Shown piece by piece: positions 2,280 through 63,768 of a stretch of 64,000 nt of DNA. Source of the DNA: a virus. Within the stretch, counting starts at the first letter, position 1. Each line of letters opens with the position of its first letter. The stretch covers positions 12,651-76,650 of the IMG/VR virus record IMGVR_UViG_3300045988_129366; one strand, written 5' to 3'. Under the pieces are notes generated by a model. It was not told the origin of the DNA. It did not search any database and saw only the letters and a program-made list of their open reading frames with translations. The position numbers and the translations under genes were made by a program.

Positions 2280-2498
2280 ATGAACTACGACATAACATTC
2301 TGCGAGGGCGAGAACTGCACGCGCAAAGAGGAGTGCCATCGCTACCGCGAACTGCTCCGCTTCCGCGCCGACAAAGACCCGAACAAAAAGACTTACATCT
2401 CAATATGCAAGCCCGACCCGACTAAATGCACTCTGTTTTGGAGAGAAAAAGGAGATTGCCCCTCGCCCGAACTCACCGATAAACTGAAAGAAGAATGA
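2280..2498 (+). CDS. small Cys-rich protein
   Basis: 72-aa ORF with CxxxxC...C...C pattern, coupled to downstream MTase start. Confidence 0.4.
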   Translation: MNYDITFCEGENCTRKEECHRYRELLRFRADKDPNKKTYISICKPDPTKCTLFWREKGDCPSPELTDKLKEE

Positions 2499-24800: not shown

Positions 24801-25378
24801 TGCCAGGCATCTTCAGCTGCCTTGATTTCCCACCTTACGCCGTACTTGTCATGGAATGCGTCAATCAGCACATTCCATATCTTCGTGTGGCTTATGGTTA
24901 TGATTGTCGCCTCCTGCTTGTACTGCCATGCAGGGTTGAGGTCAATCGTTATGGTGTCGCCGTAATAATATTCAAGCACTTGCCTGAACAGCTCGCAGAA
25001 GTCGCCGAGATTGAGCTGCACGGTTGCCACTTCCTCGTCGGGAAGATACGTCCCTGCGGCTATCTGGTGAATGGTTACAAATGTCCAACGCTTAAGCTGA
25101 TATATAGCCCAGTGCTGAAACGTGAGGTCAATCTGCGACTTAAGGCTTTCGTTGCCCTTGCTCCCCTGCGGTATGCGCAGAGGCATTATGTATTTCTCCC
25201 CCTGAAACTCAACCGCCCAATCATAAGAGAAGTCAGGGGTAATGTCACCATCTATCTTGACTTGGGTAGATATGGTTTTCTCGCTCATGTCAACAAGAGG
25301 CACCTGTGCATGGGTGAGTGTGGCATATTGCTTCCCGTCTTTCTTCGGGAAGTTAAGCTCTTTAATATCGGGTATCAA
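21818..25378 (-). CDS. large tail tip / host-specificity-type structural protein
   Basis: 1186-aa ORF between tape measure protein (TMP)-proximal genes and fibres; size and position typical of Tal/baseplate hub. Confidence 0.55.
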   Translation of the reverse strand: MIPDIKELNFPKKDGKQYATLTHAQVPLVDMSEKTISTQVKIDGDITPDFSYDWAVEFQGEKYIMPLRIPQGSKGNESLKSQIDLTFQHWAIYQLKRWTFVTIHQIAAGTYLPDEEVATVQLNLGDFCELFRQVLEYYYGDTITIDLNPAWQYKQEATIITISHTKIWNVLIDAFHDKYGVRWEIKAAEDAWQGQNNGERYVIRVGYPTTEVDHIFEYGFEGGLLKVERQVQSEEIRNMLKGRGGDTNIPLRYFKDADPNNPDFRPDPDWIEELANIPFKNLMPATFRSYVQGWKAAHISKYPGYTSVGESNAYAPWAYHKGYTDTKFAPVEFVADEITISPATGDKQVEILPGYSPYVKKGSSLDKYGPLPDTLDNNDDIYPTLQGTGLDIAVDVEQIESDDVAESTENDAKISNIEGATTTVKLTSMTTRRAIMVEFPPFDVPDGQTANIVTGAYSKNAHYTKGITGGDKDVTDLLVVSDSPEIIAINAITGVEHPGSGIPAGRWKWRATFEVELVLDPNIHLPKEGWITVGYESPKKQTASLQDSKWRKTFDIWVKNIWDSSKGAAETNEEYSERVWKPVLGDREGNAAKIMFTSGALAISEDYEFTIVDFPVPDSSKTYEGEQSHWRITLAKSEAELEATGLYVPSTQKQGKAGDRFVFIGTEMTHVPYVVDAEIRLDDWKKDQLGEVKEIKPTAVVTTDRVRLSNEGKPNALINQLRVGNSLRLFDKRFFNEAGKACETLYLQSITYTYREPTSDDAALNPDVEIVLGNEYTTSANPVSMMQGEISALQRQVGAISNIEQIVRAVGDKLYLRKDGISDRSLSPTQFFSLLTSGDFRAGLVGGAGWGFYKDENGNWVLETDRLSVRQDMSVNTLVINQAEGRGGMEIDTAAYINGVTRVVEADNGYVCYFDQKNGSVANLFHVDDVAFCNQWTAENADLKFYKRRVVAVGIDNITLSKTDVNGTGIPAEGDNIIHFGNYTDKTRQYVKVRDVVGGGYERYIESLNSVNAAGVEYYFVGKQAGESRWFIGNKDLVPYSGAGDGSYIEYINGKFNLHNVSLNIGSSIGDITLGDIIENAEQSAVTVQILTDKGNVLLNGEGQRVMTAHVYFRNEDVTDRIYEGRFSWKRTSSDTTGDKIWNRLHEGIGNQCTVTDEDVDRNAVFLCEVDISGTWLENEMENEQE

Positions 25379-27294: not shown

Positions 27295-30200
27295 CTAATT
27301 TAAGAACGTGTTGAAGCCCGTAGTCGCGCCTTTCGTCCGCAACGCCCGTCCGAGCATGGTGTGTATCTCGGCAAGGTGCTGCTCCATCCGTGGCAGACTT
27401 GAAAGGTGCTGGTTGGCGGTCGTGAACATTTCGGTGTAATCTATCGCTCCCGTAGTGATACCCGAAGCTGTAGGCAATGCCACGCCACGCCCCTCCATAA
27501 GCGCAACCACCCTCGCAAGGTTCTCGTCTATGCGCGGAATCGGAGCGGCATAGTATAATAATGTGTTCCCGATCGCCGCAGCCGTGTTTATCTCCTCGGA
27601 AGTCGCCCCGGCTATATTTTTGGCTATGCCCGTGAAGCCCTCTGCTTTCTCACGTCCGTCATATCCCCATTTCTTTGCCCACTCCATGATGACAGCCCCG
27701 GCGGCATTGGCATCCTTAGAACCTTTGTCTGCGCTTTCCATTACTTTGCGCCAAAAGTTCTCGTCGTAGAAGTCGTCCTCATCCATCTCGTCTATCATCT
27801 TGAACGTGGGTTCCAATGCCCTCTGCATGGCTTTTGCCATAAGCGACTCCACCACCATGTTTTCTATCATCTCGTGGAACTTCTCGCTCATGGCATCAGC
27901 GGTGTTCCCGAACTCCTTGTATGCGTCAAGCCATGCCTGTGCGAAATCGCGTGCTGCGGATGTTAGGTCTGTGCCGAGCATCCGCTCCGCTATCTTGCCT
28001 TGCATGTCGGCTATCTGGTCGCCGATGTCGCGGGCTTTGTTAAGGAACTCCTGCGCCTTTTCCTCGTCAGCCTTTTTCCCTTTTGACATCTCCGCCTCAT
28101 ATTGCTTCATATAGGCTTGCTGTTGCGCAAGGAGTATCTTCTGCTGCTGTTTCTGATTCGCTACATAATCAGACCCGAACACCTTGTCAGCTGCTTTCTC
28201 CAACCGCCCGTAGGTGTATTCAAGCTGATCGAGAAGATTTTGCTGACGCTCAATCTCCTTGTTGGCCTTGCGGACTTTTGAACCGCTTATCCAAGATGCA
28301 ATGGCACTTCCTACCGCCAATACTCCTGCGGCAATGGCTATATACGGATTCGATTCAGCTATTGCGTTGAATATGGCTTGTGCGGTGGCGGCGGCGTTTA
28401 TCGCCGTGCTCATAGTTTGCAGAGAGCTGATTGCTGAATCGAATACAAGTCCGGCGGCTGAATCCTCAGATATGCCGAGCAAGTCTTTTATTTCGCTAAG
28501 CTCCCCTGCGAGTTGGTCTGCGGTTGAAGCTACTTTTTGCAAGTCTTTGAAAAACTTTGTTGTGGCTTTTTTCTGCTTGTCCTGCTCGCCCGTAACTTTT
28601 TGTTCGGCTTTCTTCACCTTATCAGCGGCTTTTGCTTTTGCCTGCTCTGCTTTGGCCACATTTGCAGTGGCTGTATTTAGCCGCAACTCAGCCGCAACAA
28701 TCTGATTCTCGGTTGCAAGTTCATTGTTTTTAAGGTCGTTCAGCACTCGCTGGGCTTCTACTTTCTCATCTTCGGCTGTGGCAATATCCTCGTCAAGTTG
28801 AGGAAGCTGCGCCTGATACTCCGCCTCGGCTGCTGTTAGTTCCTGCTTGGCGATTTTGAGATTCTTGATTGCAGCGATGTAGTCGCTGACAGACTGAATC
28901 ATATCGTTGCCGAATCCTCGCCCGCTTATCTGCTCGTCTATGTCCTCCATAGCCTTGACAAGCGTTTTCATGTTCTCCGGCGAAAGATTCTGATTGGTGT
29001 CTATCAACGCTTGCATTTCAGCGCGCAAGCGTTTAAGTGAGCTTGTGGCTACATTGTCAAGATTCTCAAATATCTTGATATAGTCCTCGCTCTTGGTGAA
29101 CTCCTCGAAATTTACCTTTGCCAAATCCTCGTCTTGCTTTCTCTGACTTTGAGCCGCAAGGCGGTCTTTCTCCTCCTGCGGAAGATTCGACTTGTATATC
29201 TCGGCTCTGCGCTGTGTCTCGCGGCTGATTATGTCCGTGCGCTGCTCCTCATAGTCTTTGGCTTTTGCAAGCTCTTTCTCCCATGTGGTGATATTGGAGG
29301 CGGCGGTTTTCTGCCCCTCATTGACTATGTTTTCTGCCGTGCTGCGGTTCTTATCGATGATTTGGTCTTGATACTTGTCGTATATGTCGGCTAGAGCCTT
29401 GTAGTTGATGCGCTGATTCGTCATGTCAAATACGGGAGAAAGGTCGATTTCGACATCTTTGTTCCCGCTCTTGAACACTTCCCGAATCTGCTTAACAGCG
29501 TCCTCAAACAATTCCTCGCCCGTTGAGCCGTAGATGCTCAAAGATACGCGGGTTGCCAGTTCTATATCCCCCGTCATCCCGAGTATCTTCTCATAAAACT
29601 CCTTCGCCGTCTTGGTGCGGGAAATGCGGTCGGAAAGAGCCTTTAGTTTTTTCTCCAACGCCTTTTGTAGAGAGTTAAGGTCTACATCCTCCAACTGCGC
29701 CACAGCCTCGTCTATCTCCTTGCCGATATTGGGGAAGAGCGGTTTGCCTTTCTTGTCGCGGAGCTTCTGCAACTCTTTCATCTTGTCGATGAAGTGCTGC
29801 ATGTTTGATTTCAGATTCTCGTCGGTGAAAGGCAGTTCAAACTCAAAACCGTACTTTCCTGCGCGGTCTTGAAGCGTCTTGATTGTATTGGAGTATATTT
29901 CTTGTATCTTCTCGGCAGCCTTTGTCGCCCCAATCTGTTTCTCCAACTTGTGATACTCGTCGTAGAGCTTCTTGGTGAGCGAGATTTCCTCTTTCAGATT
30001 TTGCAGACGGGGGTCGGAGGTGCGACCGCCTTTGTTCTTTTTCTCATCAGGGTCATAGAACTCCTTGAATGTATTAAAAAGAGTTGTGAGCTGTTCAAGT
30101 TTTTTCTCGGATTCATCAATCTTTATATCTGTAAGGGGATTCATCAAACGCGCAAGCAATCCCCATTTAGCGGTTTTCTCACGCTCTTGGCGAAGTTCCT

Positions 30201-32955
30201 TTAACTTCTGCTTTTCCGATTCCATCTCATCCTTGATGCGAGTGACGTAGGTTTTCCAGTCTTCGCCAGATTGCATAAGGAATCGGCTCATTTTATTGAT
30301 ATTCCCATGAGCATCCGTTACAATCTGATAGCCTTTCTCACGAGCCAACTGAACTTTACTGTCCGCCGGAATAACATTTCCCCATTCCTTTTGCAGTGCT
30401 TTTAGTCGCATGGTAAGGTCGGGATATTTGTCGCCCACCGCTTTGATTATCGCGTCAAAATTGACCTTTGTTATATCCATAAGGTCATTAGGATTAACGC
30501 TATCTACGAGATGCAGCCATTCGGGTTGAAGCTCCACCGCCTTTTCTTGAATAGCCTTTTTCATGTCCTCATCGTTTAAGATAAGGTCGCGGACTCGTTT
30601 CATCGCAGCATTAGCCTGCATCTGCTGATAAAGGAATGTATTAGCATCTACGGCACGACCATCGGAATACCGATAAGTGGTATTTTGAAGCGACTCTTTG
30701 GTTTGTTTGATTTTCTTGTCAAATTCACCGAGCTGCCCCGTTGCCTCACGGTATTCCTCATTCATCCCCCTTATCTCATCTGCTTGGTCTGCATAGGCTT
30801 CTGTTAAAGCCGTAATGTTCGCAAAGCCGGTATTGCTGCCAAAAATATCTCGCTGAGTAAATTCAAATTCTTTTTTCCAAATCTTAGCTATCAGCTTTGT
30901 ATCATCAACTCCGGCTTCCAGCATAGCCTCCCTGAATTTCTGATAAGTACTCTTGCCCGCTTGGGGTGCCAACTTCTCAAAAGCGGAAAAAAATCTTCCC
31001 ACTTCCGTAGCAGACAATCCTTGGTCGTAGAGCCTTTCTCGCACGTCATTTTGTGCGTCTCTAATCTTCGTGCCGTAATATTCAAATATGGCACTTTCTG
31101 CTTTCTGACGTTGCTGTTCTGCAATATATTCTTTGATGGATTGTGTCAGTTCGTCATAACCGTCTTTCATCCGAGATAAATTCTCGATGGTAAGAGATTC
31201 TTGGGGAAGAATGTCTTTGTAAGTACGATTAAGCTCATCAAGCGCATCTTTTTGTTCCTTGCTTCCGTTAGCAGCTTTAACAGCTTTATCTGCAAGAAAC
31301 TCAAAATTGCGCACACTTTGGTCTTGAAGCGTGGCAGTCTCGGTGTATATGGAATCTAACTCTCTTTTGAGTTTGCGGAAGTTGGTTATCGCTTCTGAAG
31401 TTTTATATATAAAGTCTATTAAAAAGGAGACCAATATGCCCATACCAATTCCTTTCAGAGCCGACTTGCCCAAAGACATGAACCCCATTTTAAGTTTGCT
31501 CTGCGCGGTGGCGTTTTTCTGTGCGGCTATTGCGGCGGCTTCGTCCGCTTTTGCTTTTGCAAGGCTTGAACGTGCCGCGTTTTGTGCCGCAACGTCAGTG
31601 CCTTTCATAGCGGTTGCGAGTTTTGCTTCCGCGATAATGCGCTCATTTGTTGCCGCAGTAACTGTTTTGGCAAGCGAGGTTGTTGCCATCTTCATAGCTC
31701 CCATAGCAGCCACAGCGGGAAGAATAGTGGTCGCCGCTGTAAGTCCAACCGCTTTCCAGTTTCGCATCAATTCGGTGAGCATTTGGATTGCTTCTTTCAT
31801 GCCCTCATTGACAATACCCGTGTTGCCAATCTGCTCGTACATCACGGAAGCGGCATCTCCCAATTTTTGCCACAAGCCGTATAAGGTGTTACCTTGCTGT
31901 ATCTGCATATTGTAAAACATACCTCCGGCATCCGTCATGTCGTAAAGCACCTCCTTTACCAACTCCCAAGAGATAGCTCGTTTTGAAATCATATCCATGA
32001 CCTCTGCCGTAGATACCATCTCGCCGTTCATCTTGGAAAGTTTGATAGATAGTTCCTCCAACAATGGCACTCCCAATTCTGTAAATTGCTTGAGTTCACT
32101 TGCGCGCAGGTAGGTGGCTGTTCTCGTCTGACCGGCGGCAAGCACAATGCGTTGATAATCAACGCCTAATCCAACTGAAATATCGGCAAAGCGTTTTGTC
32201 ATTTCAAACAGCTCGTCATACTCAATTTTGTATGCCGCGAGTTGCTTAGTGTATCTCGTCATGTCAAGAATCGACAATGGCGAGTTAAGCGCAAATTGTT
32301 TGATTTGCGAAAATATCTGCTCTCCTTTATTCGCATCCTGCAAAATCGCGCCGAGCGACACTCTTTGCAATTCAAACTGTGCGGTTACTTCTCTTACCGA
32401 TGTAAGGAAATTGCCGACCATTGAAAATGACGCATATATAGCCATCTTCTTAATAAGTCGTTCAAGATAGCCGCTTTGGGCGCTATATGCTTTTGATGTT
32501 CTGTCAGCCTGTTGCGCCGCCCTCTGTTGCGACAATATCAGACGCCCCCCTGCTTGTCTTACACGCTCCTGCGACAGACGGAGTTTTTCATCTGCTTGCG
32601 CCACATCCTTTCGCAGTTTAGCGGCTTTAGCCATCTGCAACTCCGGCAACTCAATCCCCTTGAACTTCTGAATCTTCTCCATGATACGGGCAAGCTCTTT
32701 CAGCTCGCGCACCAAGTCCCTGATAACGGTCTTGTTCTCGGGGGTAAGTGGTGTTATCTTTAACTCCGCAAGCCGCCTCTTGACATCATCAAGATTGTCA
32801 AACGCCTTGGTGTCAAATTTCAATTTGACATTCAACGTCCGTTTCTGAATAGCTTTCTCCAACTTGTCGGCATACTTGCCGTCCCAGTCTTTAATCGCTG
32901 CCTCTACTCCTTTTTCAAGGTCGAATACTATCGGGAATCTTAAATTTTCCGCCAT
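27295..32955 (-). CDS. tail tape measure protein
   Basis: 1886 aa, strongly helical K/E/A/Q-rich, internal hydrophobic segments (ILPAVAAMGAM..., GMGILVSFLIDFIY), position between chaperone and distal tail genes. Confidence 0.85.
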   Translation of the reverse strand: MAENLRFPIVFDLEKGVEAAIKDWDGKYADKLEKAIQKRTLNVKLKFDTKAFDNLDDVKRRLAELKITPLTPENKTVIRDLVRELKELARIMEKIQKFKGIELPELQMAKAAKLRKDVAQADEKLRLSQERVRQAGGRLILSQQRAAQQADRTSKAYSAQSGYLERLIKKMAIYASFSMVGNFLTSVREVTAQFELQRVSLGAILQDANKGEQIFSQIKQFALNSPLSILDMTRYTKQLAAYKIEYDELFEMTKRFADISVGLGVDYQRIVLAAGQTRTATYLRASELKQFTELGVPLLEELSIKLSKMNGEMVSTAEVMDMISKRAISWELVKEVLYDMTDAGGMFYNMQIQQGNTLYGLWQKLGDAASVMYEQIGNTGIVNEGMKEAIQMLTELMRNWKAVGLTAATTILPAVAAMGAMKMATTSLAKTVTAATNERIIAEAKLATAMKGTDVAAQNAARSSLAKAKADEAAAIAAQKNATAQSKLKMGFMSLGKSALKGIGMGILVSFLIDFIYKTSEAITNFRKLKRELDSIYTETATLQDQSVRNFEFLADKAVKAANGSKEQKDALDELNRTYKDILPQESLTIENLSRMKDGYDELTQSIKEYIAEQQRQKAESAIFEYYGTKIRDAQNDVRERLYDQGLSATEVGRFFSAFEKLAPQAGKSTYQKFREAMLEAGVDDTKLIAKIWKKEFEFTQRDIFGSNTGFANITALTEAYADQADEIRGMNEEYREATGQLGEFDKKIKQTKESLQNTTYRYSDGRAVDANTFLYQQMQANAAMKRVRDLILNDEDMKKAIQEKAVELQPEWLHLVDSVNPNDLMDITKVNFDAIIKAVGDKYPDLTMRLKALQKEWGNVIPADSKVQLAREKGYQIVTDAHGNINKMSRFLMQSGEDWKTYVTRIKDEMESEKQKLKELRQEREKTAKWGLLARLMNPLTDIKIDESEKKLEQLTTLFNTFKEFYDPDEKKNKGGRTSDPRLQNLKEEISLTKKLYDEYHKLEKQIGATKAAEKIQEIYSNTIKTLQDRAGKYGFEFELPFTDENLKSNMQHFIDKMKELQKLRDKKGKPLFPNIGKEIDEAVAQLEDVDLNSLQKALEKKLKALSDRISRTKTAKEFYEKILGMTGDIELATRVSLSIYGSTGEELFEDAVKQIREVFKSGNKDVEIDLSPVFDMTNQRINYKALADIYDKYQDQIIDKNRSTAENIVNEGQKTAASNITTWEKELAKAKDYEEQRTDIISRETQRRAEIYKSNLPQEEKDRLAAQSQRKQDEDLAKVNFEEFTKSEDYIKIFENLDNVATSSLKRLRAEMQALIDTNQNLSPENMKTLVKAMEDIDEQISGRGFGNDMIQSVSDYIAAIKNLKIAKQELTAAEAEYQAQLPQLDEDIATAEDEKVEAQRVLNDLKNNELATENQIVAAELRLNTATANVAKAEQAKAKAADKVKKAEQKVTGEQDKQKKATTKFFKDLQKVASTADQLAGELSEIKDLLGISEDSAAGLVFDSAISSLQTMSTAINAAATAQAIFNAIAESNPYIAIAAGVLAVGSAIASWISGSKVRKANKEIERQQNLLDQLEYTYGRLEKAADKVFGSDYVANQKQQQKILLAQQQAYMKQYEAEMSKGKKADEEKAQEFLNKARDIGDQIADMQGKIAERMLGTDLTSAARDFAQAWLDAYKEFGNTADAMSEKFHEMIENMVVESLMAKAMQRALEPTFKMIDEMDEDDFYDENFWRKVMESADKGSKDANAAGAVIMEWAKKWGYDGREKAEGFTGIAKNIAGATSEEINTAAAIGNTLLYYAAPIPRIDENLARVVALMEGRGVALPTASGITTGAIDYTEMFTTANQHLSSLPRMEQHLAEIHTMLGRALRTKGATTGFNTFLN

Positions 32956-40320: not shown

Positions 40321-40331
40321 AATTCTATTTG

Positions 40332-40403
40332 TGGCGCGGGACGGACTCGAACCGCCGACCTTTGGGATATGAACCCAACGAGCTACCGCTGCTCTACCGC
40401 GCT
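40332..40403 (-). tRNA. tRNA-Met (anticodon CAT), initiator-like
   Basis: Hand-folded cloverleaf: D-arm GAGC/AGCGGTA/GCTC, anticodon arm TTGGG-TTCATAT-CCCAA (three G-C pairs next to loop), T-arm GGCGG-TTCGAGT-CCGTC, acceptor with 1:72 A-C mismatch, A73, no encoded CCA. Confidence 0.7.
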
Positions 40404-46881: not shown

Positions 46882-47114
46882 GGTATTTCGGTTTGTTGGT
46901 TCTCAATTACAGTACCGCAAGTAGGGCATCTTACGGTACAATCAACTCGCGTTATTGTGTTACGCAAGCCTCCCCACGCTCCATCATTTTGCACTTCATT
47001 CAGGTGCCAATTCGCATCCGTAGTGTCAAACTCAAATTCGCACTCGCAGATGGGGCATTTAGCCTTGTACCGCTTGATGTTCGGCTCTCTTGTTATCTTC
47101 TTTGCCATACTCAA
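46866..47114 (-). CDS. zinc-ribbon protein
   Basis: CPICEC...CPTCG. Confidence 0.45.
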   Translation of the reverse strand: MSMAKKITREPNIKRYKAKCPICECEFEFDTTDANWHLNEVQNDGAWGGLRNTITRVDCTVRCPTCGTVIENQQTEIPCPDR

Positions 47115-47797
47115 TTCCTATTAGCATTCACAACCGCCACGGCTCTGCGGAAGTGCAGCCACCATTTTTCTTTCAATACCCGCTTGCGCAAATCGTGTTC
47201 GCCGATGCGCTGATACTTGCTCGTCCGTGTTTCCACAAGACCCTCCAACGCCGCCGCCTCACTACGCATACGCTTTCCGCAGAAGCCTTGTATCTTCTCC
47301 ACATAGCCATAGGTATCAACCCGCTTGCCGCCCCACCATATACGCCGTTCCTCCATGAATGTGGTGATTGTGTCGGCGTTTGGATCGGCAAGAAAATCCT
47401 CCACTCCCATATTGTAGAAATCCTGCGCCACGGGAAGTATGCAAGAATAGAAATTGCTTCGCGCCCACGCACCCATGCGGATGAACATTTTGCGGATAGG
47501 CTCGTAAATCTTCATAGCCTTTGCCTCTCGCTGGAGAGTTAATTGCCAATCAATCTCATCGAATATGAAGCCATCGCGTATCAGCCCGAAGTTACCGGGA
47601 TAGTTGGTCGTTTCGATATGCTCACGACACAACCCCTCGTCGTGAGAGTGTTGATAGCCGTCCTCTACGCCGAGTTTGTAAACCCGGTCAAAGAGCGTTA
47701 TTAGCTTAGACACATCCTTAGCCTCTATGATAGGTTGCGTAGCCATATCAGTAAATCCTTTCCGCCAGCCACCCTTGCAGATAAGCCGACGCTTCAA
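47111..47797 (-). CDS. hypothetical protein
   Basis: 228-aa ORF. Confidence 0.45.
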   Translation of the reverse strand: MKRRLICKGGWRKGFTDMATQPIIEAKDVSKLITLFDRVYKLGVEDGYQHSHDEGLCREHIETTNYPGNFGLIRDGFIFDEIDWQLTLQREAKAMKIYEPIRKMFIRMGAWARSNFYSCILPVAQDFYNMGVEDFLADPNADTITTFMEERRIWWGGKRVDTYGYVEKIQGFCGKRMRSEAAALEGLVETRTSKYQRIGEHDLRKRVLKEKWWLHFRRAVAVVNANRN

Positions 47798-48113
47798 TAT
47801 CGTTTACGTTAATCCACTCCATAATGCGGTCAACGACGTGCCGCGTTTCGTGAGCTAATATATTGCGGCGCATTGCCTCAGTCTTGCAGGGATAGAGGAT
47901 AACGAGCAACTTCTTCATACGCAGATTGCGGTATGTGTCGCCGCCATTGGTCGCCTCGGTCTTGATAGCGTTGATAACGTCGGCGTAATTATCGCCGTCG
48001 ATATTCAGCTCTTTCAACACCTTTGCCATAGGCTCATCATCCTGCTTGCCCTCAATGTCGGCAAACAGCACCGTATAGTCGTAGATAGGTATTTTAATCC
48101 GTTTCAGCTTCAT
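47748..48113 (-). CDS. hypothetical protein with HExxH motif
   Basis: ILAHETRHVV. Confidence 0.4.
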   Translation of the reverse strand: MKLKRIKIPIYDYTVLFADIEGKQDDEPMAKVLKELNIDGDNYADVINAIKTEATNGGDTYRNLRMKKLLVILYPCKTEAMRRNILAHETRHVVDRIMEWINVNDIEASAYLQGWLAERIY

Positions 48114-48610
48114 TCGCCCTCCTTGTCCTCGTTCAGAATCTCGCGCATCATTTGTTTATCCGCCTCCAAAGCCGCCTTAGCCTCTTTCTTGTTCATCTGC
48201 GACCGCTCTACGACGGATTCCATAAACGCCTGACTCGCCATTTCCTCAGAATCGGTAACGGCTTTTGCCTTTTCTGCGCCCTGCTTCATCAGTCGCTCAT
48301 CACGGGCATTAAAGCACGTCACAAGGTCTTTGGCAAGCGTTTCGTCCTGATAGCACTCCTGCGTCATGCGCCAAAGGAGTATGCAGAACGCCTCCAATTC
48401 GCGCGTGTTGCCTTGATTGATTGCCGCCATGAGGTAGCCGTAGGTATGACACGCGCCTATTTTGTAATCGAACGCTCCATTGTGGGCGTACATCCGCATA
48501 TAGCACTTCTTGATGTCCTTCTCGTTGACGTAGAAGTCAACAATCACTGCTCCGTTGGCAATCTCAATGTGATGCTTCGGGGCGTTTTTTAGTTTAAGTC
48601 TGTTGCTCAT
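48110..48610 (-). CDS. hypothetical protein
   Basis: 166-aa ORF. Confidence 0.45.
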   Translation of the reverse strand: MSNRLKLKNAPKHHIEIANGAVIVDFYVNEKDIKKCYMRMYAHNGAFDYKIGACHTYGYLMAAINQGNTRELEAFCILLWRMTQECYQDETLAKDLVTCFNARDERLMKQGAEKAKAVTDSEEMASQAFMESVVERSQMNKKEAKAALEADKQMMREILNEDKEGE

Positions 48611-50052
48611 TTCAATCTTTCTTTATTTGATTAGGGCGAGAAAACCCACTGTTTCAACCGTGGAATGATAGCCCGTTTTGTTGATATTTTCCTTACTAAT
48701 TGATTGCATATTTGATAATTAATTAGTATCTTTGTGTATGATTTCGTACAAATACAAACTTTATAACTCCAAGCGAAACAAACATCTTTCGGCTTTGCTG
48801 AGAGATGCTTCCTTTGTATGGAATCATTGCCTTGCGTTGCAAAAGCGTTACTATCGGATGTTTGGTAAGTTCATCAACGCTAACCGTCTTAAAACGTATT
48901 TTGCAAAGCGATACAAGATGTGTCGTCTTCACTCGCAGACCGTACAGGAGGTGATTGAACGTCTTGATACCGCCTACAAGCGGTTCTTTGACCATATCGC
49001 CAAGCGACCGCCAAAGTTTAAGCGAGCGAAAGACTTTGCATCCATCGTATTTAAGCAGGGCGGTTACAAGATAGAAGACAACCGTCTTACGGTGAATAAA
49101 ATCGAGAAGACATTCAAGTTCTTTCTCAGCCGACCCTATGACGGAGCGATAAAGCGACTTGTCATCAAGCGAGACACTATCGGAGATTTCTATATCGTGT
49201 TGGTTCTCGACCGCCCCGTGAACACTATCGGAAAGACACATGAAGGTGCATCCGTTGGTGTGGATTTCGGTCTTAAGACCTACATGACGCTCTCCGATGG
49301 CTCTTGTGTTGATAATCCGCGATTCCTCCGCAACGACCTCAGAAGACTCCGCAAGGCATCCCGCAGGCTTTCTCTCGCGAAGAAAGGAAGCCACAACCGT
49401 GAGCGCAGACGCAAGGAATTTGACCGTATTCACCGCGCAATCAGAAACAGGCGTTCCGACTATCAGTGGAAGCTCGCTCACGAACTTTGTAAAAGGTACG
49501 ATACTATCTGCCTTGAAGACCTCAATCTTTCGGGTATGACTCGGATGTGGGGTCAGAAGATGAATGACCTCGCCCATGCGGAGTTTGTCACCAAATTGGA
49601 GTATGTCGCCACCAAATATGGCGTTATCATCCATAAGATTGGCAGATATTTTCCGAGTTCCAAATTGTGTTCTTGCGGTCATGTCAATAAATTGTTAAAG
49701 TTGTCCGACAGGTCTTGGGTGTGTCCTTGCTGTGGTGAGGTTCACGACCGCGACCTTTGGGCATCTCAGAATATTCTTCGGCAGGGCATTGCCGAGTTGG
49801 AGAGCGGTAGTAAGACTTCCAAAGCCAAGCGAGGGAGCAGTCGCGTTCGCATCCAAGAATCCCATTGTCTTTAGACGTGGGAGTATGTCAACATATCTTC
49901 TCATTCTCGCGCAGTCGCAGTCGGGAGTGCAGAGAATATCATAGGCAATCGTCAGTGCGCCTTTGCTATAATAAAGCGACTTTTTACAGCACAAGCCGCT
50001 CAATACACCATAATGCTTACACGCTTTTCTGTACGCCTCGCGCTCCTTGCTC
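48611..50052 (+). mobile_element. IS200/IS605-family tnpB-only insertion (IS1341-like); ends approximate
   Basis: + strand tnpB inside - strand block, flanked by ~120 nt (left) and ~180 nt (right) non-genic DNA with hairpins. Confidence 0.55.
48732..49874 (+). CDS. tnpB: TnpB (OrfB) RNA-guided endonuclease of IS605 family
   Basis: RuvC-I GVDFGLKTYMTLSDG, RuvC-II ICLEDLNLSGM, Zn finger CSCGH...CPCCG, RuvC-III HDRDLWASQNI. Confidence 0.85.
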   Translation: MCMISYKYKLYNSKRNKHLSALLRDASFVWNHCLALQKRYYRMFGKFINANRLKTYFAKRYKMCRLHSQTVQEVIERLDTAYKRFFDHIAKRPPKFKRAKDFASIVFKQGGYKIEDNRLTVNKIEKTFKFFLSRPYDGAIKRLVIKRDTIGDFYIVLVLDRPVNTIGKTHEGASVGVDFGLKTYMTLSDGSCVDNPRFLRNDLRRLRKASRRLSLAKKGSHNRERRRKEFDRIHRAIRNRRSDYQWKLAHELCKRYDTICLEDLNLSGMTRMWGQKMNDLAHAEFVTKLEYVATKYGVIIHKIGRYFPSSKLCSCGHVNKLLKLSDRSWVCPCCGEVHDRDLWASQNILRQGIAELESGSKTSKAKRGSSRVRIQESHCL

Positions 50053-50295
50053 TCAATCATTCTCGCAAAGTTTTTCTACATACAATCCGTTGTCCTCCCG
50101 ATATTTCTTGATTTTCTCAAACATCGTTGAAAACAAATCATCGTCTTGCATAGAATGGGTAGGCATCCATATCGGCATTTTGCCGCACATCATAAAGCCG
50201 TACAGACCGCGCAACTGCATCTTGTATTTCGACAATTCCTCCTGTTGCATCGCGATTGTGTCCGCAAGTTGCTTGATTTTCTCGTCTTGTGTCAT
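50053..50295 (-). CDS. hypothetical protein
   Basis: 80-aa ORF. Confidence 0.4.
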   Translation of the reverse strand: MTQDEKIKQLADTIAMQQEELSKYKMQLRGLYGFMMCGKMPIWMPTHSMQDDDLFSTMFEKIKKYREDNGLYVEKLCEND

Positions 50296-50296
50296 A

Positions 50297-51232
50297 TCAC
50301 TTCCTTTTCAACCCCTCCACAACCGCTTTGGCAACCGAAACGGCATACGCACCAATATCCTTGGGGCGATTATCCATCTTTTTGTTTACTATTTTCAACG
50401 CCACCTCTTTGGCGAGGTCGGCGGCGTATGCGTCCCAATAGCTGTCCGTGAGGTCAACTTCTACGGGGATTTTGATAGTGTGGTTGGGCTTCTCCGACTC
50501 CGTCTGCTCCGTTGGCTCTATCTTGCGCTCAATCATATCGTCATTGATGCCGCCTATGCTTGGGTCTATATCTACTCTGTAAAAGCCGTTATCCTCGACC
50601 GCTGTTATGGTTGCTTCCTTGCTCGCAAACATCACCAGCATCCATCGAAAACTTTTATCCTTTACCTTTTGGAGTTCGTAGATGTTTTTGAACCTTACTC
50701 GGTCTCCAGCCTTAAACTTTGCCTCTTTCGCCTCCGCATCGACCTTGACGAGATACTTGGTCGGGATAGCGATTGGCGCAGAGTAAATAGGGCTATCTTC
50801 TATATCCAACCCTATTATTGCTGCATCGCCATCTACCTCGTGTACGGTGCTTTGATGTTCGGTATAATCAAAAATAGAACCTTTTTGATATACTCTCGGC
50901 GCGTCCTTTGACACCCTCACTGTGTCGCCTTGCTTGATTTCGTTACGGTTCATCTTCAATGCCTCTTTTCTTCGTTCTTCTAATTCTCTTTCCAATTTTT
51001 CAGAGTAAGATTCAACATATATTTCGGGGATTTCGTCAAGCATTACATTCGGGCAATCTACCGCCACTAACCGATATTTACGGTTTCGGTCGGGAGTTGG
51101 CGGGTCATTTTCGGTAATCGCATCAACTCTCCACAGTCTACCATCGGGTACGATATACTTTCCGATAACCTCAAACGCTCTGTTGCCTGTCTTAAACACG
51201 ACAATATCGCCTAACTTGATTTCGTTGCTCAT
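50297..51232 (-). CDS. hypothetical protein with three tandem GD-V-FK-like repeats
   Basis: IKLGDIVVFKTGNRAFEV / IKQGDTVRVSKDAPRVYQ / FKAGDRVRFKNIYELQ. Confidence 0.45.
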   Translation of the reverse strand: MSNEIKLGDIVVFKTGNRAFEVIGKYIVPDGRLWRVDAITENDPPTPDRNRKYRLVAVDCPNVMLDEIPEIYVESYSEKLERELEERRKEALKMNRNEIKQGDTVRVSKDAPRVYQKGSIFDYTEHQSTVHEVDGDAAIIGLDIEDSPIYSAPIAIPTKYLVKVDAEAKEAKFKAGDRVRFKNIYELQKVKDKSFRWMLVMFASKEATITAVEDNGFYRVDIDPSIGGINDDMIERKIEPTEQTESEKPNHTIKIPVEVDLTDSYWDAYAADLAKEVALKIVNKKMDNRPKDIGAYAVSVAKAVVEGLKRK

Positions 51233-51531
51233 ATTGTTCTGTAAATAAGTTTAATCTCGTTTATGTTATAGTTTTCCGTATCATCAACAGCATCGGAAAA
51301 TCTAATCGTGACATTAGGCACGGTATCGCCCCCATAATAGGTGTCTATAATCTTACCATAAGACCCTTTGAGGTGATTTCTCGACATTGTTGTGCATACA
51401 ATATCGCCATTTTGATACTTATTGGCTTTAAGTATCTTCCCAATAACCGCTTGCAATAGAGGCTTGTATCGGAGCGACCCGTATTCGCTTTTCAGTATCT
51501 CTATTTCTGCTTGCGTTAGTTCACTATTCAT
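51229..51531 (-). CDS. hypothetical protein
   Basis: 100-aa ORF. Confidence 0.4.
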   Translation of the reverse strand: MNSELTQAEIEILKSEYGSLRYKPLLQAVIGKILKANKYQNGDIVCTTMSRNHLKGSYGKIIDTYYGGDTVPNVTIRFSDAVDDTENYNINEIKLIYRTI

Positions 51532-51632
51532 TTTTCAAAAAAGGCTCAAACTTTCGCCCGGCTGTGCGAGAACCGGGGTACTTGTCTGAGCTGTTAATAT
51601 CCTTTTCCGAAGCCTCGCACGATTCGTAAGTG

Positions 51633-51680
51633 CAAATATAGTGTAATATTGTCAATTATGCAAGTAATTCTATAATTCAG
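51633..51680 (-). promoter_or_regulatory. Bacteroides-type promoter with conserved upstream motif (copy B)
   Basis: minus strand ctgaattatagaattacTTGcataattgacaatat tacac TAtaTTTG. Confidence 0.5.
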
Positions 51681-53172
51681 ATTTAGATTTTTGCAGACAA
51701 AAACCATAGCCAGTCCCTTGTCTGTGCTTGAAGCAACCCTTTTGCGAAAGCATAGCGGATAAGTCCGTGGGATATTTGCGTTTACTTCCCTCCATTTCAC
51801 AATATGCCGAGTATTCAGCATACAAGTCTTTAAGGCTTCGCCAACAATCCAAATCCTTTTCCCCGACCGCCTCATACTCGTTCTCAGCCCACCATCGGCG
51901 CATATTGTTGCTCCCTGCCATAATTATCTCCTGCGACTTCTTCATATCCTCTCCCATCACAATATCCCCCTTGTTCTTGGCGAAGATGCGGTAGCCCTCC
52001 ACAATCCAATGAAAGATATACATAAGAGCTTCGGGGCGAGTCAGCTTGTAGGTAAGGCTCGTGTCTCTGTCCTCGCCCGTAAACGCCCGTGTGGTCGTAT
52101 GCACCACAAGCCGTCTGCGCTGTCCGCCGTAACTATCATCGTCAGTCTCGGGCATAGTGTTGGCACAGCATAGCAACGGAGGAGCGATCACCTTCACGGG
52201 CTTCTTGTCGTAAGGCACACGCCCCTGGAACTCCCCACCGCTCGCAAACCGCTTAAAGTCACCGCCCGAAAGCTCCTTGCCGTCCATATCGTCTATGAAG
52301 TTGGCTACCTTATTGGCGAGAGCCGCGATATTCACGTTGCGGTCGCTGTCCTTGAACAACTGACGGAACGAAAAGCACGAAAAATACTCCTTGCCAAACA
52401 CCGAGGCTATAACATTCGATACAACGCTCTTGCCGTTTGCTCCGGGGCCAAGCAAAAAGAGCACATAATCAAGTGTAAATTGACTTTTATCGGCGATAAG
52501 TGCGCCACACCATTGCTGAAACACACTCCGGGCGTCCTTATTCGGGATAATCTCGGCGATTTTCTCGTCCCACAGCTTGCAGGGATTACCGAAAGTGCCG
52601 TATTTCTCCGCGCACTCGCGGTAAAGCTCGTCCTTATCCTTATATTCGAGGTCAAGCACGATAGCCGGGCATTGCTCCACAGCGGGCTTCACCGCCTTGC
52701 GCTTCTCCACGTCATACACGAGGTTTCTGAACGCCACATAACGCCGATTCGGGCGATAGAGATATTTGTCGCTGCTCGAAATGGTGTCAAGGCAGCTCAT
52801 CGCGATAGCCTTTGCAGGGTACTCGTCATTGTATTTCTCGCCCAAATCAAGCTCGATAAACGCCCGCTTGAGCAATTCCTTTAAGAAGATCTCTCTGTCC
52901 TCCACACGCACGAAACAAACGCCGTTAAACGCATATATCGCGCTCTTGCTCCCGTCCGAGAGAAAGCGCTTCATCTTGTCCTCGCAAATAAGGTTACGGA
53001 CAATCGCCCTCAATCGGTCAACGCGACCCTGATACACGTTCTTGTCGTATTTGCCGAGACCTCTCAGCTTCCCTCCGTCCTTGCCCTTTGAATAAAGCCG
53101 CTTATACTCCGCCTCCATCGCAGGGCAGAGCCAATCCAAGAGATAGCGATAGATTTGTTCTGAAACTAACAT
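51670..53172 (-). CDS. DNA primase/helicase (D5 / P4-family SF3 helicase)
   Basis: Walker A LLGPGANGKS, 500 aa, phage replication context. Confidence 0.7.
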   Translation of the reverse strand: MLVSEQIYRYLLDWLCPAMEAEYKRLYSKGKDGGKLRGLGKYDKNVYQGRVDRLRAIVRNLICEDKMKRFLSDGSKSAIYAFNGVCFVRVEDREIFLKELLKRAFIELDLGEKYNDEYPAKAIAMSCLDTISSSDKYLYRPNRRYVAFRNLVYDVEKRKAVKPAVEQCPAIVLDLEYKDKDELYRECAEKYGTFGNPCKLWDEKIAEIIPNKDARSVFQQWCGALIADKSQFTLDYVLFLLGPGANGKSVVSNVIASVFGKEYFSCFSFRQLFKDSDRNVNIAALANKVANFIDDMDGKELSGGDFKRFASGGEFQGRVPYDKKPVKVIAPPLLCCANTMPETDDDSYGGQRRRLVVHTTTRAFTGEDRDTSLTYKLTRPEALMYIFHWIVEGYRIFAKNKGDIVMGEDMKKSQEIIMAGSNNMRRWWAENEYEAVGEKDLDCWRSLKDLYAEYSAYCEMEGSKRKYPTDLSAMLSQKGCFKHRQGTGYGFCLQKSKSEL

Positions 53173-55763: not shown

Positions 55764-56384
55764 TCACTCTCCTTTCTTTATCAGTTCCAGCGCGGATGCT
55801 ATGCCCTCGCTCAACGCTTGATTATAGTTTGAGTAACGCTTGTTGAGCCTACGCGCTTCTTTGTGTAGATAGACCACATTACAATCATAGACTACCTCAT
55901 TGACTGATTCCAACGTAGGGTAAACGTGTATGTTCCATTTCTCCCGCAGCCACTTCTGGGCGTGATAGAGTAACGGCGCATTGGCAATAACCTTGCCATC
56001 GGGATTGGTGAAACCATTTTGCGATTGGGTCGGGTGGAATACCAATATCTTTAAATCAGGATATTGCCTTTTTGTATCTTCGAGGCATTTGCGTTCCCAT
56101 TCACGGTAAGACGTTGATAACCCCGTTGCGGCAATAAAGCCTGTCGCAACGAGGCTTCCCGGCAATAAAAAAGCATCTTTTGTATTAGGTAATACCTTTA
56201 TCAGTTCGATGAACTTCGCAGCGTCGGGGTAGGCTTTCGCAAACATCCGCTGGAACGCGTCGGGGGCTACGCCGAGCGTTCCTTCCATCGAGGAATCCCC
56301 TACGGTGAACACTGTTCTGCGATTCGTCTTGCGGAACAATTTTCTGTATGCCTTTTTGAAAAGGTCTTTGATTTCCTGTTTCAT
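55764..56384 (-). CDS. hypothetical protein co-transcribed with MTase
   Basis: 206-aa ORF, 4-nt overlap with upstream MTase. Confidence 0.45.
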   Translation of the reverse strand: MKQEIKDLFKKAYRKLFRKTNRRTVFTVGDSSMEGTLGVAPDAFQRMFAKAYPDAAKFIELIKVLPNTKDAFLLPGSLVATGFIAATGLSTSYREWERKCLEDTKRQYPDLKILVFHPTQSQNGFTNPDGKVIANAPLLYHAQKWLREKWNIHVYPTLESVNEVVYDCNVVYLHKEARRLNKRYSNYNQALSEGIASALELIKKGE

Positions 56385-57115
56385 ATCTCTTGTTTTTGAG
56401 ATAGGTTATAATCCAATTTAAGTTGCGCCTGAGCGTCCTTTACTCGCTTCACGGCAATGTCGTAATACTCCTGCATCAGCTCTATCCCGATACCTCTGCG
56501 TCCCGTGTTGGCGCAAGCGACCATTGTAGAGCCGCTTCCCATGAACGGGTCGAGAACAACACTATTCTTATCAGTTGAGTTACATACAAATCTCTCCATG
56601 AGGGTTATCGGTTTCTCTGACGGGTGTACTTTGGTTCCATATACACCCTTACACCCTCGAATGAGAGCCGTATCTCCCATGTGTCTTATATACTCCGCTT
56701 TGCCTTTACACATAAACAGAATAAACTCTATATCCTTTCTGTAATATTGTATCGGGGTAGCCATTCCTTTATCCCACACAAGGATGTTTAGCAAATGGAA
56801 TCGAGCGCTTTTAGCAGATGATAAATAATCGCACAAATTCTTGTCATTAGTCATACAATAAAATTGTCCGCCATTGCGTAGTACTCGGTACAATTCCTGC
56901 ATCCAAATAGATGTTTCGGGAATTTCAAAGAACTTGCCCTTGCCAACCTCTGCCGATGACAGCTTGGAAAACCTCACAATCTTCTTGTTATGTCCTCCGC
57001 CCACTAATTTATAGGGAGGGTCTGTAACGACGCAATCCACACTGCTGTCAGGTATTCCTTTCAGCAGTTCAAGGCAGTCGCCGCGCAGGAGGGTGATGTT
57101 GTCTGTTTTATTCAT
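56381..57115 (-). CDS. DNA methyltransferase (N6-adenine/N4-cytosine, DPPY family)
   Basis: VVTDPPY (motif IV) and LDPFMGSGST (motif I) in beta-class order; start at internal ATG 57115 overlapping upstream stop. Confidence 0.8.
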   Translation of the reverse strand: MNKTDNITLLRGDCLELLKGIPDSSVDCVVTDPPYKLVGGGHNKKIVRFSKLSSAEVGKGKFFEIPETSIWMQELYRVLRNGGQFYCMTNDKNLCDYLSSAKSARFHLLNILVWDKGMATPIQYYRKDIEFILFMCKGKAEYIRHMGDTALIRGCKGVYGTKVHPSEKPITLMERFVCNSTDKNSVVLDPFMGSGSTMVACANTGRRGIGIELMQEYYDIAVKRVKDAQAQLKLDYNLSQKQEI

Positions 57116-57399
57116 TCTGAATCCTTTTGAGTACAACTTTGCGCCTTTTGCCACCACATATCGAAAACAACATCGCCATCAACACCCTCTATGTGTGTCG
57201 CCACATATTTTGCCAAATCTGTAAGGCGGATTGTTTCTATCATTCTCAAAACGATATTGATTTCCAATAACCGTTCTTCCTTGCCTCCCACATTTGAGGA
57301 CATACAAGACGCAATTACAGAAACGATAGCTGTCTTATAATCCAAGTCCTTTTCCATGTAGGCTCGGATGTCTCGTTCTTTATGCTCGTTATTTTTCAT
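57112..57399 (-). CDS. hypothetical protein
   Basis: 95-aa ORF. Confidence 0.4.
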   Translation of the reverse strand: MKNNEHKERDIRAYMEKDLDYKTAIVSVIASCMSSNVGGKEERLLEINIVLRMIETIRLTDLAKYVATHIEGVDGDVVFDMWWQKAQSCTQKDSE

Positions 57400-61393: not shown

Positions 61394-62188
61394 ATGGTAC
61401 AGAATAACAGACCTTACGTTTTATGGCGGCGCGTATCTACAAAGGAACAGGGCGAGTCTAAGCTCGGGCTTGAAGCGCAAGTGGCAATCGCCGAAGATGA
61501 AATGGGATGCCCCGCAGTAAAGATTTTTACTGATGTCTATTCCGGCACAAAATTAGCCGGCTGTCAGCAGCTATGGCAAGCAATCAGATATTGCAAGAAA
61601 AACAATCTTCTGCTTGTGGTTGCCAATACAGACCGTTTTCGCGATGTCAAATATGCGCTTACAGTGCTTGATGAAGTAGGCGAGGGGAACATTGTATTTT
61701 GCGACCTTCCTACGTCAGACAGACAAGTTCTCACTATTTATATCTCTATTTGGGAAAAACAGGCGAGACAGGGGCGAATCAAAACGCAGGTGGCACTCAA
61801 CGAGCTAAAAAAGAAATCAGATCGCGGCGAGAAGTGGATAAGTAAGAACGGGAATTTATGCGACCGCCTCGGCAGACCGGCCGATGGCATCGACGAGAAT
61901 GGTAAGCCATATTGGGACGTGTCGGCGATGGTAACAGCAGCTTCAGCGGCAAGAAGCGATGCGGCGATTTTGTGGATGGAGCACTCGAAGGCTGTAGAAC
62001 GCGCACGAGCCAAACGCGCCGAAGGCTGGAGAATCGACGATATTGTGCGCGACCTCGGCGAACTCTACGACCAAAATATTCCCGACGACCCAAAGGACAA
62101 GAACCCATACGGCACGCCAACGGGCTGCAAGCCGAGCAAAGGCACAGTTTCCAAATGGTGCCGCGAAATGAATCCTTTGGCGGTCTAA
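61394..62188 (+). CDS. serine recombinase (resolvase/invertase catalytic domain)
   Basis: WRRVSTKEQ (catalytic Ser), ANTDRFRD; 264 aa. Confidence 0.7.
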   Translation: MVQNNRPYVLWRRVSTKEQGESKLGLEAQVAIAEDEMGCPAVKIFTDVYSGTKLAGCQQLWQAIRYCKKNNLLLVVANTDRFRDVKYALTVLDEVGEGNIVFCDLPTSDRQVLTIYISIWEKQARQGRIKTQVALNELKKKSDRGEKWISKNGNLCDRLGRPADGIDENGKPYWDVSAMVTAASAARSDAAILWMEHSKAVERARAKRAEGWRIDDIVRDLGELYDQNIPDDPKDKNPYGTPTGCKPSKGTVSKWCREMNPLAV

Positions 62189-62532
62189 TCAAAACAAATT
62201 ATTATCTTTGTGTTTTAAAAACTCCGGCGCAGGAGGGTAAAGTCTGCAAAACACCATGGCTCTTTACAATGTTCTTTACACAAACCGAGCAGAAATGTCG
62301 ATTATCAATGAAGTTCCTTTCACAGAACTTGACAAGGCGATCGCTTTTGCTGACAGTCAGGTAGAAGGAATGGAAAAATGTACCGGCGACCCTGAAACTG
62401 ATTCGCATCCGTCTTGCTGCTACACCGTGACGACCGCGCCGGAGAAAGATGTCATCTCGACGAATGGGAACCCGAAGACGTATATCAGACAGATTGGTAT
62501 TGGGAGTAGGTGGAATAACACTTCTTCGCACC

Positions 62533-63768
62533 TCATTTCGCCCACTCGGGTATCGGCATATCGGCTTCGGGTGCATCATCAAGCGAGAAGTCTATAATCT
62601 TGCGTATCGCCAAATCCGCCTGGAAGCGCATAACTTTCAGGTAGTCGAATATCGGGCGACTATTGGCATCTTTGATGCTCTGCCCGATGGCATATTCAAG
62701 CACATATAGCGGAATGCCGAGCTGCTGCCCGAACTGCACAAATGTTTTACGTGCCGAATAGAACATCAGTTTCTTTTCAAAGCCCAAATCCTCGCCGATT
62801 TTATTTAGTCCTTTGGTTACGAATGACCGGAATTGCTCATAATCGCGGTAATGATAGCCGAAATCAAGCGTACCGTCTGCGGTGATGTATTTGTCGATGA
62901 TTACCCTCGCTTCGGGTTGTATCGTCAGAGAAACACCTTTTTCGCCCGTCTTTTTCGTCGCTGTCTTCTTGCGCACGAAGTTTATGGTATCACCGTCGAG
63001 CTTCGCGTCAATAAGGTCAGTGAGATTTATCCCGGCAAAGTAGAACGATAGCATGAACAAATCCCTCGCCACAGTGTGCCGCCGTTCGGATATGCCGCTA
63101 AATTCAGCCTCGCGCAGCTTCTTCAGCTCTTCTTTGGTTATCCAAATCTCGCGCACGTTCTTAGCGGGCATACGATAATTTGCGAAAGGCGGTATCTTAT
63201 ATTCAACAGCGCCGGTTTTTACTGCGTAATTTAGCAATGCTTTAAGGTGCGTCATGCGAATGTTGATTGTAGTGTCTGACTGACCGTTTCCCCTTAGATG
63301 GTTTTCAAACAACCCAAGAGCAATATATGTGAAATCTTTTAGCCGCACACTCCCGCCGAAGCAGTCTACTATTGCCCTTAAGGTATAGCCCATATTTTGA
63401 GCATAGGACTTCTGATTGTTTTCATTGAGGCGTTCTATATATCGTTCTGCGAATGCAGTGAAACTTTCTTTGTTAGGAGTTGCGTCGCTTTCGAGCCATT
63501 CTCTTATCTTGGATGCCGGAACACTCTTTGGCGAGTCGAGTTCATCGAGTTTCGTTTGATAAGCGCACAGCATCTGCGACAACTTGGCGTTAATCATTGC
63601 GGCCTGAGGGTGTCGAACGACCTGACCGCCGTTCCATTGCTTCTTCTCTACGTAATATTGAGTGGAAATATATGTCACACTCGTTCCATTGGTAATTTTA
63701 AACCGAATGGCGAATGTCCCGTCTTGCCTGGGGCGAGAAGTGACGATACAAAGAGATATGGTAGCCAT
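62533..63768 (-). CDS. tyrosine-type site-specific integrase (Bacteroides phage-type with N-terminal arm-binding domain)
   Basis: N-terminus ISLCIVTSRPRQDGTFAIRFKI; C-terminal catalytic region; adjacent to tRNA. Confidence 0.75.
   Translation of the reverse strand: MATISLCIVTSRPRQDGTFAIRFKITNGTSVTYISTQYYVEKKQWNGGQVVRHPQAAMINAKLSQMLCAYQTKLDELDSPKSVPASKIREWLESDATPNKESFTAFAERYIERLNENNQKSYAQNMGYTLRAIVDCFGGSVRLKDFTYIALGLFENHLRGNGQSDTTINIRMTHLKALLNYAVKTGAVEYKIPPFANYRMPAKNVREIWITKEELKKLREAEFSGISERRHTVARDLFMLSFYFAGINLTDLIDAKLDGDTINFVRKKTATKKTGEKGVSLTIQPEARVIIDKYITADGTLDFGYHYRDYEQFRSFVTKGLNKIGEDLGFEKKLMFYSARKTFVQFGQQLGIPLYVLEYAIGQSIKDANSRPIFDYLKVMRFQADLAIRKIIDFSLDDAPEADMPIPEWAK

Follow-up and report, generated by a model that had tools for sequence, protein, structure and literature searches.

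A tnpB-only element, very probably a non-autonomous member of the IS200/IS605 family, with its predicted omega-RNA at the end of a small gene in a Bacteroidales phage

The window, i.e., the whole 64-kb stretch of phage DNA analyzed here, encodes a terminase, a portal protein, a primase, two DNA methyltransferases (C-5 cytosine methyltransferase, 2495-3274; N6/N4 DNA methyltransferase, 56381-57157) and a Bacteroidetes-type tyrosine integrase. The latter (Phage_int_SAM_5 and Arm-DNA-bind_5 domains; 62533-63768) adjoins a protein with a resolvase N-terminal domain (61394-62188), and the region 61394-63768 is compatible with a temperate or integrative element. A tRNA-Met gene is located at 40331-40403, and three huge minus-strand ORFs at 13420-20733 (2,437 aa), 27295-32955 (1,886 aa) and 21818-25378 (1,186 aa) gave no Pfam match at E<=0.001. 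The closest genomic relatives were found in Bacteroidales MAGs (Porphyromonadaceae with 86 %, then Prevotella, Paludibacteraceae and Sangeribacter); a megablast search of 47000-52000 against GenBank phages yielded no match. A tnpB gene (48738-49874, plus strand) lies antisense to its neighbours, all of which are encoded on the minus strand and include a primase/helicase (51670-53172). The first-pass annotation of this DNA had fairly placed it inside a minus-strand operon of the phage early region.

The tnpB reading frame starts with ATG at 48738 and encodes 378 amino acids, or 380, the length reported in the first pass, in case the alternative TTG start at 48732 is used. Its product is matched by the Pfam profiles OrfB_IS605 (PF01385; 1.4e-23, 83.8 versus a cut-off of 30.5) and Cas12f1-like_TNB (PF07282; 4e-17, 62.5 versus 26.3), by the NCBIfam profile guided_TnpB (NF040570; 259 bits, cut-off 100) and by the structures of ISDra2 TnpB (PDB 8bf8, 8exa, 8h1j; residues 7-352, E=6e-43). 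Alignment to ISDra2 TnpB, the residues of which have had their roles named (PMC10097598), places D176 (49263-49265), E260 (49515-49517) and D339 (49752-49754) on D191, E278 and D361 of the RuvC site, and C311, C313, C329 and C332 on the zinc-binding C331, C334, C351 and C354, the first zinc knuckle being CxC instead of CxxC. The RuvC D-E-D triad and the CCCC zinc finger typical of the TnpB family are thereby both present; the first-pass annotation had described RuvC-I/II/III and the zinc finger as intact and had named mutated catalytic residues as grounds for abandoning its reading, and the triad was found unaltered on this alignment. With dN/dS values of 0.07-0.13 against four sister copies (L071, L073, L001 and L194), TnpB is under purifying selection. 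The profile of IS607-type TnpB (NF038280) reached 144 bits, below its cut-off of 350, and the partners of tnpB in relatives are Y1 transposases, with no serine-recombinase TnpA of the IS607 type. As for a type V CRISPR-Cas system, no repeat array was detected in 48500-50300, and the Cas12f2 and C2c8 profiles scored far under their cut-offs. A 319-aa antisense ORF (48723-49682) was treated as a by-product of the tnpB frame.

Only 3 nt before the tnpB ATG, the motif TATCTTTG (48727-48734, plus strand) matches TAnnTTTG, the Bacteroidetes -7 promoter consensus. Several relatives have similar motifs shortly before the ATG, suggesting that the tnpB mRNA may be leaderless or carry a very short leader. 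Across the window, TAnnTTTG is not enriched (46 found versus 35 expected), and when 48300-50300 was scanned for consensus sites, sequences resembling sigma-70 promoters or terminators were no commoner than in shuffled sequence.

The element spans 48627-49891 (1,265 bp), and the same length was obtained for the sister copy in L071. It begins with a left end (LE) of 111 nt (48627-48737, plus strand) containing nested stems (48634-48637/48671-48674 and 48646-48649/48660-48663), which abuts on its 5' side the TAM TTTAT (48622-48626, plus strand). The right end (RE; 49860-49891, plus strand) comprises a subterminal hairpin with the tnpB stop codon, followed by GAGTATGTCAA up to the right cleavage site behind TCAA, and finishes 17 nt past the stop codon at 49891 (...GTATGTCAA). 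The arrangement ...CCAAGAAT-hairpin-GAGTATGTCAA is kept in about 50 related IMG/VR loci, with flanks wholly divergent straight after it. A copy in L073/L074, which adjoins a portal gene in an unrelated phage context, shares 90.7 % nucleotide identity with the window over 48631-49891, and the similarity stops exactly at 49891. On the other side it starts at 48631, inside LE; the start at 48627 was set by the TAM and by empty-site comparisons. TTAY stands at the TAM position, 8-11 nt ahead of the LE stem base, in every one of the 14 independent left ends compared across the family. In the pairs L014/L015, window/L073 and L001/L194, similarity is lost right after this position: L014 and L015 part immediately after TTTAC, while L001 and L194, a sister-type pair of 98 % identity in different contexts, have only TTAT in common upstream. 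All five empty sites found read TTTAT/CATATC (the slash marking the insertion point), with nothing duplicated. Insertion 3' of a short motif, with neither target duplication nor terminal inverted repeats, agrees with the IS200/IS605 family, as do the subterminal hairpins at LE and RE, weaker here than in sister copies; the LE hairpin is kept in relatives with compensatory changes.

The motif TTGAT at 48627-48631, identical to that of ISDra2, was considered as an alternative TAM with the boundary TTGAT/TAGGG and was rejected, the true boundary lying 5 nt leftward. In sister copies this stretch reads GAGAT and GTGTT, TTAY is present a few bases further 5' in all left ends, and the relatives' ..TATGATAAA.. 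together with the gene end is recreated only by the TTTAT/CATATC junction; for these reasons the boundary was set at 48627 and the TAM at 48622-48626. Scanning IMG/VR with a 14-base left-end pattern gave at least 119 matches, nearly all of them by chance, the real ones being L158 and L192. The first-pass annotation had delimited the element as 48611-50060: an element is indeed present there, and its ends had to be corrected. The left end estimated at about 120 nt was close, whereas the right end of about 180 nt did not hold, since only 17 nt follow the stop codon and 49892-50060 is native phage coding sequence.

This native sequence represents the first 56 codons of a small Cys-rich phage gene (49892-50060, minus strand) with homologues in relatives. 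From here the frame reads through into the element for 65 foreign codons (49695-49891, minus strand), yielding a chimeric ORF of 121 aa (49695-50060). The displaced original 3' end of the gene, six codons ending in ..DKERLK before the stop, is located on the other side of the element (48607-48626, minus strand), where its TGA overlaps the ATG of a 166-aa gene (48110-48610) in the form ATGA. When the flanks are rejoined, a 62-aa minus-strand ORF (MIESKEREAY...CTPDCDCARMRRYDKERLK, then stop) results, parallel to its counterparts in relatives. Homologues of about 62-64 aa are present in L001, L058, L060, L062 and L209-L213, and in L058, L060/L061 and L062 the small gene directly abuts the 166-aa gene with no TnpB between them. 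Because relatives without TnpB have the small gene directly before the 166-aa gene, the 121-aa ORF is the native gene running into the element; the insertion has severed the final six codons of this gene, which originally encoded 62 aa. The disruption of ORF 49695..50060 suspected in the first pass is thereby upheld; the overlap with its N-terminus is not, as the element covers the C-terminal part.

The 3' end of tnpB also carries the scaffold of an omega-RNA of about 115 nt (49777-49891, plus strand), recognized by covariation and by a covariance model. For an alignment of 18 diverse copies, each represented by its final 170 nt (A2), RNAalifold predicted 30 pairs, 16 of which show compensatory changes. 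The cells of paired columns can pair in 97 % versus 37-46 % when the partners are slid by 1-3 columns, and the covariation score of 0.51 (versus about 0.1 in the slid controls) was reached by none of 500 shuffles. A covariance model from which the window copy and the two copies nearest to it in this alignment (L001 and L071) had been left out gave a single match in the window (49770-49891; 115.7 bits, E=1.4e-36) and also detects the same RNA in Bacteroidales MAG loci. The first-pass annotation had expected a guide scaffold across the tnpB 3' end and the right end and had proposed such a search around 49750..50050, which returned the predicted RNA. Over the last 43 tnpB codons, dS between copies collapses, e.g., to 0.12 versus 0.96 for the window and L001, as is characteristic of coding sequence overlapped by a functional RNA.

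The scaffold contains four stems on the plus strand, i.e., stem 1 (49777-49783/49790-49796), stem 2 (49797-49801/49852-49856), stem 3 (49804-49808/49840-49844) and stem 4 (49860-49869/49874-49882), the last with a UUUA loop and holding the tnpB stop codon. The TnpB of the window ends with ..QESHCL at a TAG in the stem-4 loop (49860-49874), and the sister TnpBs stop two residues earlier (..QESR) at a TGA within the stem. Stem 1 covaries through amino-acid changes of TnpB (LRQGIAEL, LRRGISEL, LRKGISEL, LRQGIASL, LRRGIYEL), and the protein sequence appears to yield here in order to preserve stem 1 of the omega-RNA (49777-49796). In a candidate pseudoknot, GGCAU in the stem-1 loop (49785-49789) can pair with AUGUC at positions -7 to -3 (49885-49889, plus strand), these pairs being invariant and thus devoid of covariation. 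A long-range GAC:GUC helix returned by RNAalifold (49752-49754/49887-49889) was set aside, being invariant and using the codon of the catalytic D339; pairing of the stem-1 loop with AUGUC would fit the pseudoknot of ISDra2 better, though it is equally invariant. A search of Rfam gave no match at E<=1 in 48400-50400, no curated family reaching that threshold. The covariance model also matches L001 weakly at 546-680 (17 bits, E=0.004), in a stretch that begins shortly before the left end of the L001 copy and extends into it; this may reflect mere similarity of the LE and RE hairpins or a remnant of an older right end.

The guide is predicted to lie outside RE and to begin with the first flank base, reading CATATCTTCTCATTCT (49892-49907, plus strand), with its length of 16 nt and the 5' end of the omega-RNA assumed from ISDra2. 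This sequence occurs once in the window, at the junction, where it is preceded by GTCAA and not by the TAM.

No tnpA was detected by tblastn in the 64-kb window, i.e., the element itself lacks the Y1 (HUH) TnpA of IS200/IS605 elements. A Y1_Tnp gene (PF01797, E about 1e-39) stands beside tnpB in many relatives located on phage contigs, among them L024-L034, L014-L016, L042, L049 and L200; it is divergent from tnpB in L024-L034 and L014-L016 and co-directional in L042. Since relatives carry a Y1 tnpA beside tnpB, the family is bona fide IS200/IS605, in agreement with the IS605-family, tnpB-only assignment of the first pass. The absence of tnpA from the window copy and its presence in relatives therefore mark the former as a non-autonomous IS1341-type derivative that would need TnpA in trans.

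Taken together, we consider it very likely that the locus harbours a non-autonomous, tnpB-only IS200/IS605-family insertion sequence of a Bacteroidales phage, with cleavage and site retention via the omega-RNA ascribed to it from the biology of its family. The steps of TnpB action outlined here are drawn from Karvelis (2021), Meers (2023), Nety (2023) and Mears (2025). Here, the tnpB transcript would be processed to an omega-RNA with the flank from 49892 as 3' guide, and the TnpB-omega-RNA complex would cut DNA reading TTTAT and then CATATCTTCTCATTCT..., i.e., the empty site, arising from excision or residing in a related phage devoid of the insertion. Repair of the break from an occupied copy would keep or copy the element. 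The occupied copy itself should be protected, because GTCAA stands in place of the TAM before its guide match. For moves to new TTAY sites, an autonomous relative would have to provide Y1 TnpA in trans. This scheme follows the published biology of the family (PMC10055086, PMC11870625).

Relatives lacking the insertion, the comparison of which had been proposed in the first pass for defining the empty site, were retrieved from IMG/VR by an exact search with TTAY+CATATCTTCTCATTC. In five phage contigs (L209-L213), TTTAT is followed by at least 17 nt that match the guide perfectly. Each of them reads TTTAT/CATATCTTCTCATTCTCG...; three of the five match the flank of the window over at least 36 nt, and their left flanks are wholly different from that of the window. 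The same gene at the same place with no insertion scar in relatives, which would have spoken against an insertion, was not observed; relatives show empty sites (TTTAT/CATATC) and clean junctions.

Sister copies occur in the same short interval. The copy in L071/L072 (L071 3890-5154) has a TnpB 95 % identical to that of the window and sits in the same gene tail 9 nt away, behind the TAM CTTAT; the gene end reconstructed from L071 (..RYDKMNKK) matches that of the empty L062 (..RYDKMSKK), each followed by the stop. Descent of the L071 and window copies from one insertion event was rejected, in view of the 9-nt offset of the right junction and the TAM of its own. In L001, the copy (639-1890; 86 % identical) is likewise inserted between the small gene and the 166-aa gene, at a distance of about 100 nt; it is inverted relative to the window copy and follows ATTAT. 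The tnpB-only elements of the window, L071 and L001 are close relatives but, judged by their junctions, go back to three separate transposition events in one short interval, which suggests that the gene junction they share is an insertion hotspot or a site at which insertions are particularly well tolerated. At about 1.1 kb from its TnpB element, L071 also contains a homing-endonuclease-like gene with NUMOD4 and HNH_3 domains (1873-2751); the region in L071-related phages gathers several kinds of selfish nuclease genes.

In view of these target sites, one may speculate that the element mainly serves one Bacteroidales phage against another in mixed infections, either as an RNA-guided gene drive or as a weapon of exclusion. 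When two phages infect together, or when a lysogen is superinfected, related phages with the empty site would be cut and either converted to the occupied allele or eliminated, a reading that overlaps with the preferred one and adds a benefit to the carrier phage. We regard this as possible, though somewhat doubtful. In its favour, the five natural contigs combine TTTAT with a perfect guide match, the guide is directed at ..CTPDCDCARMRRYDK, the conserved coding end in a gene that otherwise divergent phages have in common, and related phages show three independent insertions no more than about 100 bp from this gene junction. Moreover, a TnpB gene drive has been demonstrated for plasmids (PMC11870625), and the phage case has been named as theoretically possible (PMC13565253). 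However, the occupied junction was not found in IMG/VR, where the empty site was found five times, and a successful drive predicts otherwise; likewise, the differing junctions of the neighbouring insertions indicate transposition, not homing. If true, the element would be to phages what the TnpB gene drive is to plasmids, and would resemble an RNA-guided version of the free-standing homing endonucleases known from T-even phages, with its guide tied to the 3' end, itself conserved, of a small Cys-rich early gene and with the exact TAM and target present in natural competitor phages.

A non-autonomous element with a presumably functional nuclease, as preferred here, also has to be weighed against a stranded, decaying relic that is immobile and in which both nuclease and RNA are inactive. 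Apart from the missing tnpA, the terminal hairpins are weakened: folded as ssDNA, the LE hairpin reaches -4.9 kcal/mol (z = -1.0) versus -6.4 to -13.3 in sister copies, having two stem mismatches absent from the latter (48646-48664; 4+2 bp remain), and the RE hairpin reaches -3.8 kcal/mol versus -7.0 in L071. In many relatives, e.g., L019, left ends are truncated. Against a relic stand, however, the full-length ORF with all catalytic and zinc residues, the dN/dS of 0.07-0.13, the intactness of every omega-RNA helix (115.7 bits on the covariance model) and the presence of both termini and the TAM, rendering overall decay improbable. The window copy may rather be losing its TnpA-dependent mobility with nuclease and RNA still intact. 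The L073 copy in an unrelated context and the L001/L194 pair in two contexts suggest recent mobility of the element and of its sister type.

A domesticated, nuclease-dead TnpB acting as RNA-guided repressor of a phage or host gene (TldR-like) is hardly credible, for although prophage-borne TldR proteins are known (PMC10705468) and the gene is located among phage early genes, all three RuvC residues are in place, the protein retains its full C-terminus, the transposon ends and the TAM are preserved, and within the window the guide matches its own flank only.

TnpB, omega-RNA, TAM and peel-and-paste ends are established biology, and the family to which the element belongs as a typical member is well known. 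In all sequence-level features tested, with the exception of the missing tnpA, it conforms to the TnpB and IS200/IS605 families. In gut phages, too, TnpB genes have been noted before, their sporadic occurrence having been reported for some crAss-like phages (PMC11054128), and homing between phages has been raised as a theoretical case (PMC13565253). The report on crAss-like phages comes without ends, TAM, guide RNA or empty sites, and the window is not crAss-like as far as tested, having an integrase and other gene content. The value of the present locus lies in an unusually complete natural example, with exact ends, a TTAY TAM derived from 14 copies and covariation of a guide RNA within coding sequence, and with related gut phages that supply occupied as well as empty sites and independent insertions nearby. 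It offers a test case for homing or exclusion by TnpB between phages, a process demonstrated for plasmids and, in the case of phages, no more than a proposal, as well as a compact predicted nuclease of 378 aa with a TTTAT TAM and a defined scaffold from Bacteroidales.

Among known systems, IS608 of Helicobacter pylori is the model of the IS200/IS605 family: it inserts 3' of a TTAC-like tetranucleotide, its RE ends in TCAA, subterminal hairpins are present at both ends, the target is not duplicated, and both tnpA and tnpB are carried. The window copy shares the TTAY-side insertion, the TCAA right end, the subterminal hairpins and the absence of target duplication, but possesses tnpB only (IS1341-like organization). 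ISGst2 TnpB2 of Geobacillus stearothermophilus, likened here by description only, has the same TAM, 5'-TTTAT-3', determined experimentally, and its proposed role is cutting of the vacated site such that the transposon is retained (Meers et al., PMC10055086); in contrast to the present element, it is chromosomal, with tnpA available in the genome. A detailed likeness exists to ISDra2 of Deinococcus radiodurans, the TnpB of which aligns end to end (E=6e-43). In the ISDra2 omega-RNA, a 116-nt scaffold folds into stems 1-4, with a UUUA tetraloop and a pseudoknot that involves positions -5 to -3 (PMC10097598); correspondingly, the scaffold predicted here is about 115 nt long and has four stems, the last of them capped by a UUUA tetraloop, and its 3' segment at -7 to -3 could pair with the loop of stem 1. 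The element of the Bacteroidales phage differs from ISDra2 in its TAM (TTTAT/TTAY versus TTGAT), the CxC form of the first zinc knuckle, a stem-1 loop of just 6 nt, the lack of tnpA and the phage host itself.
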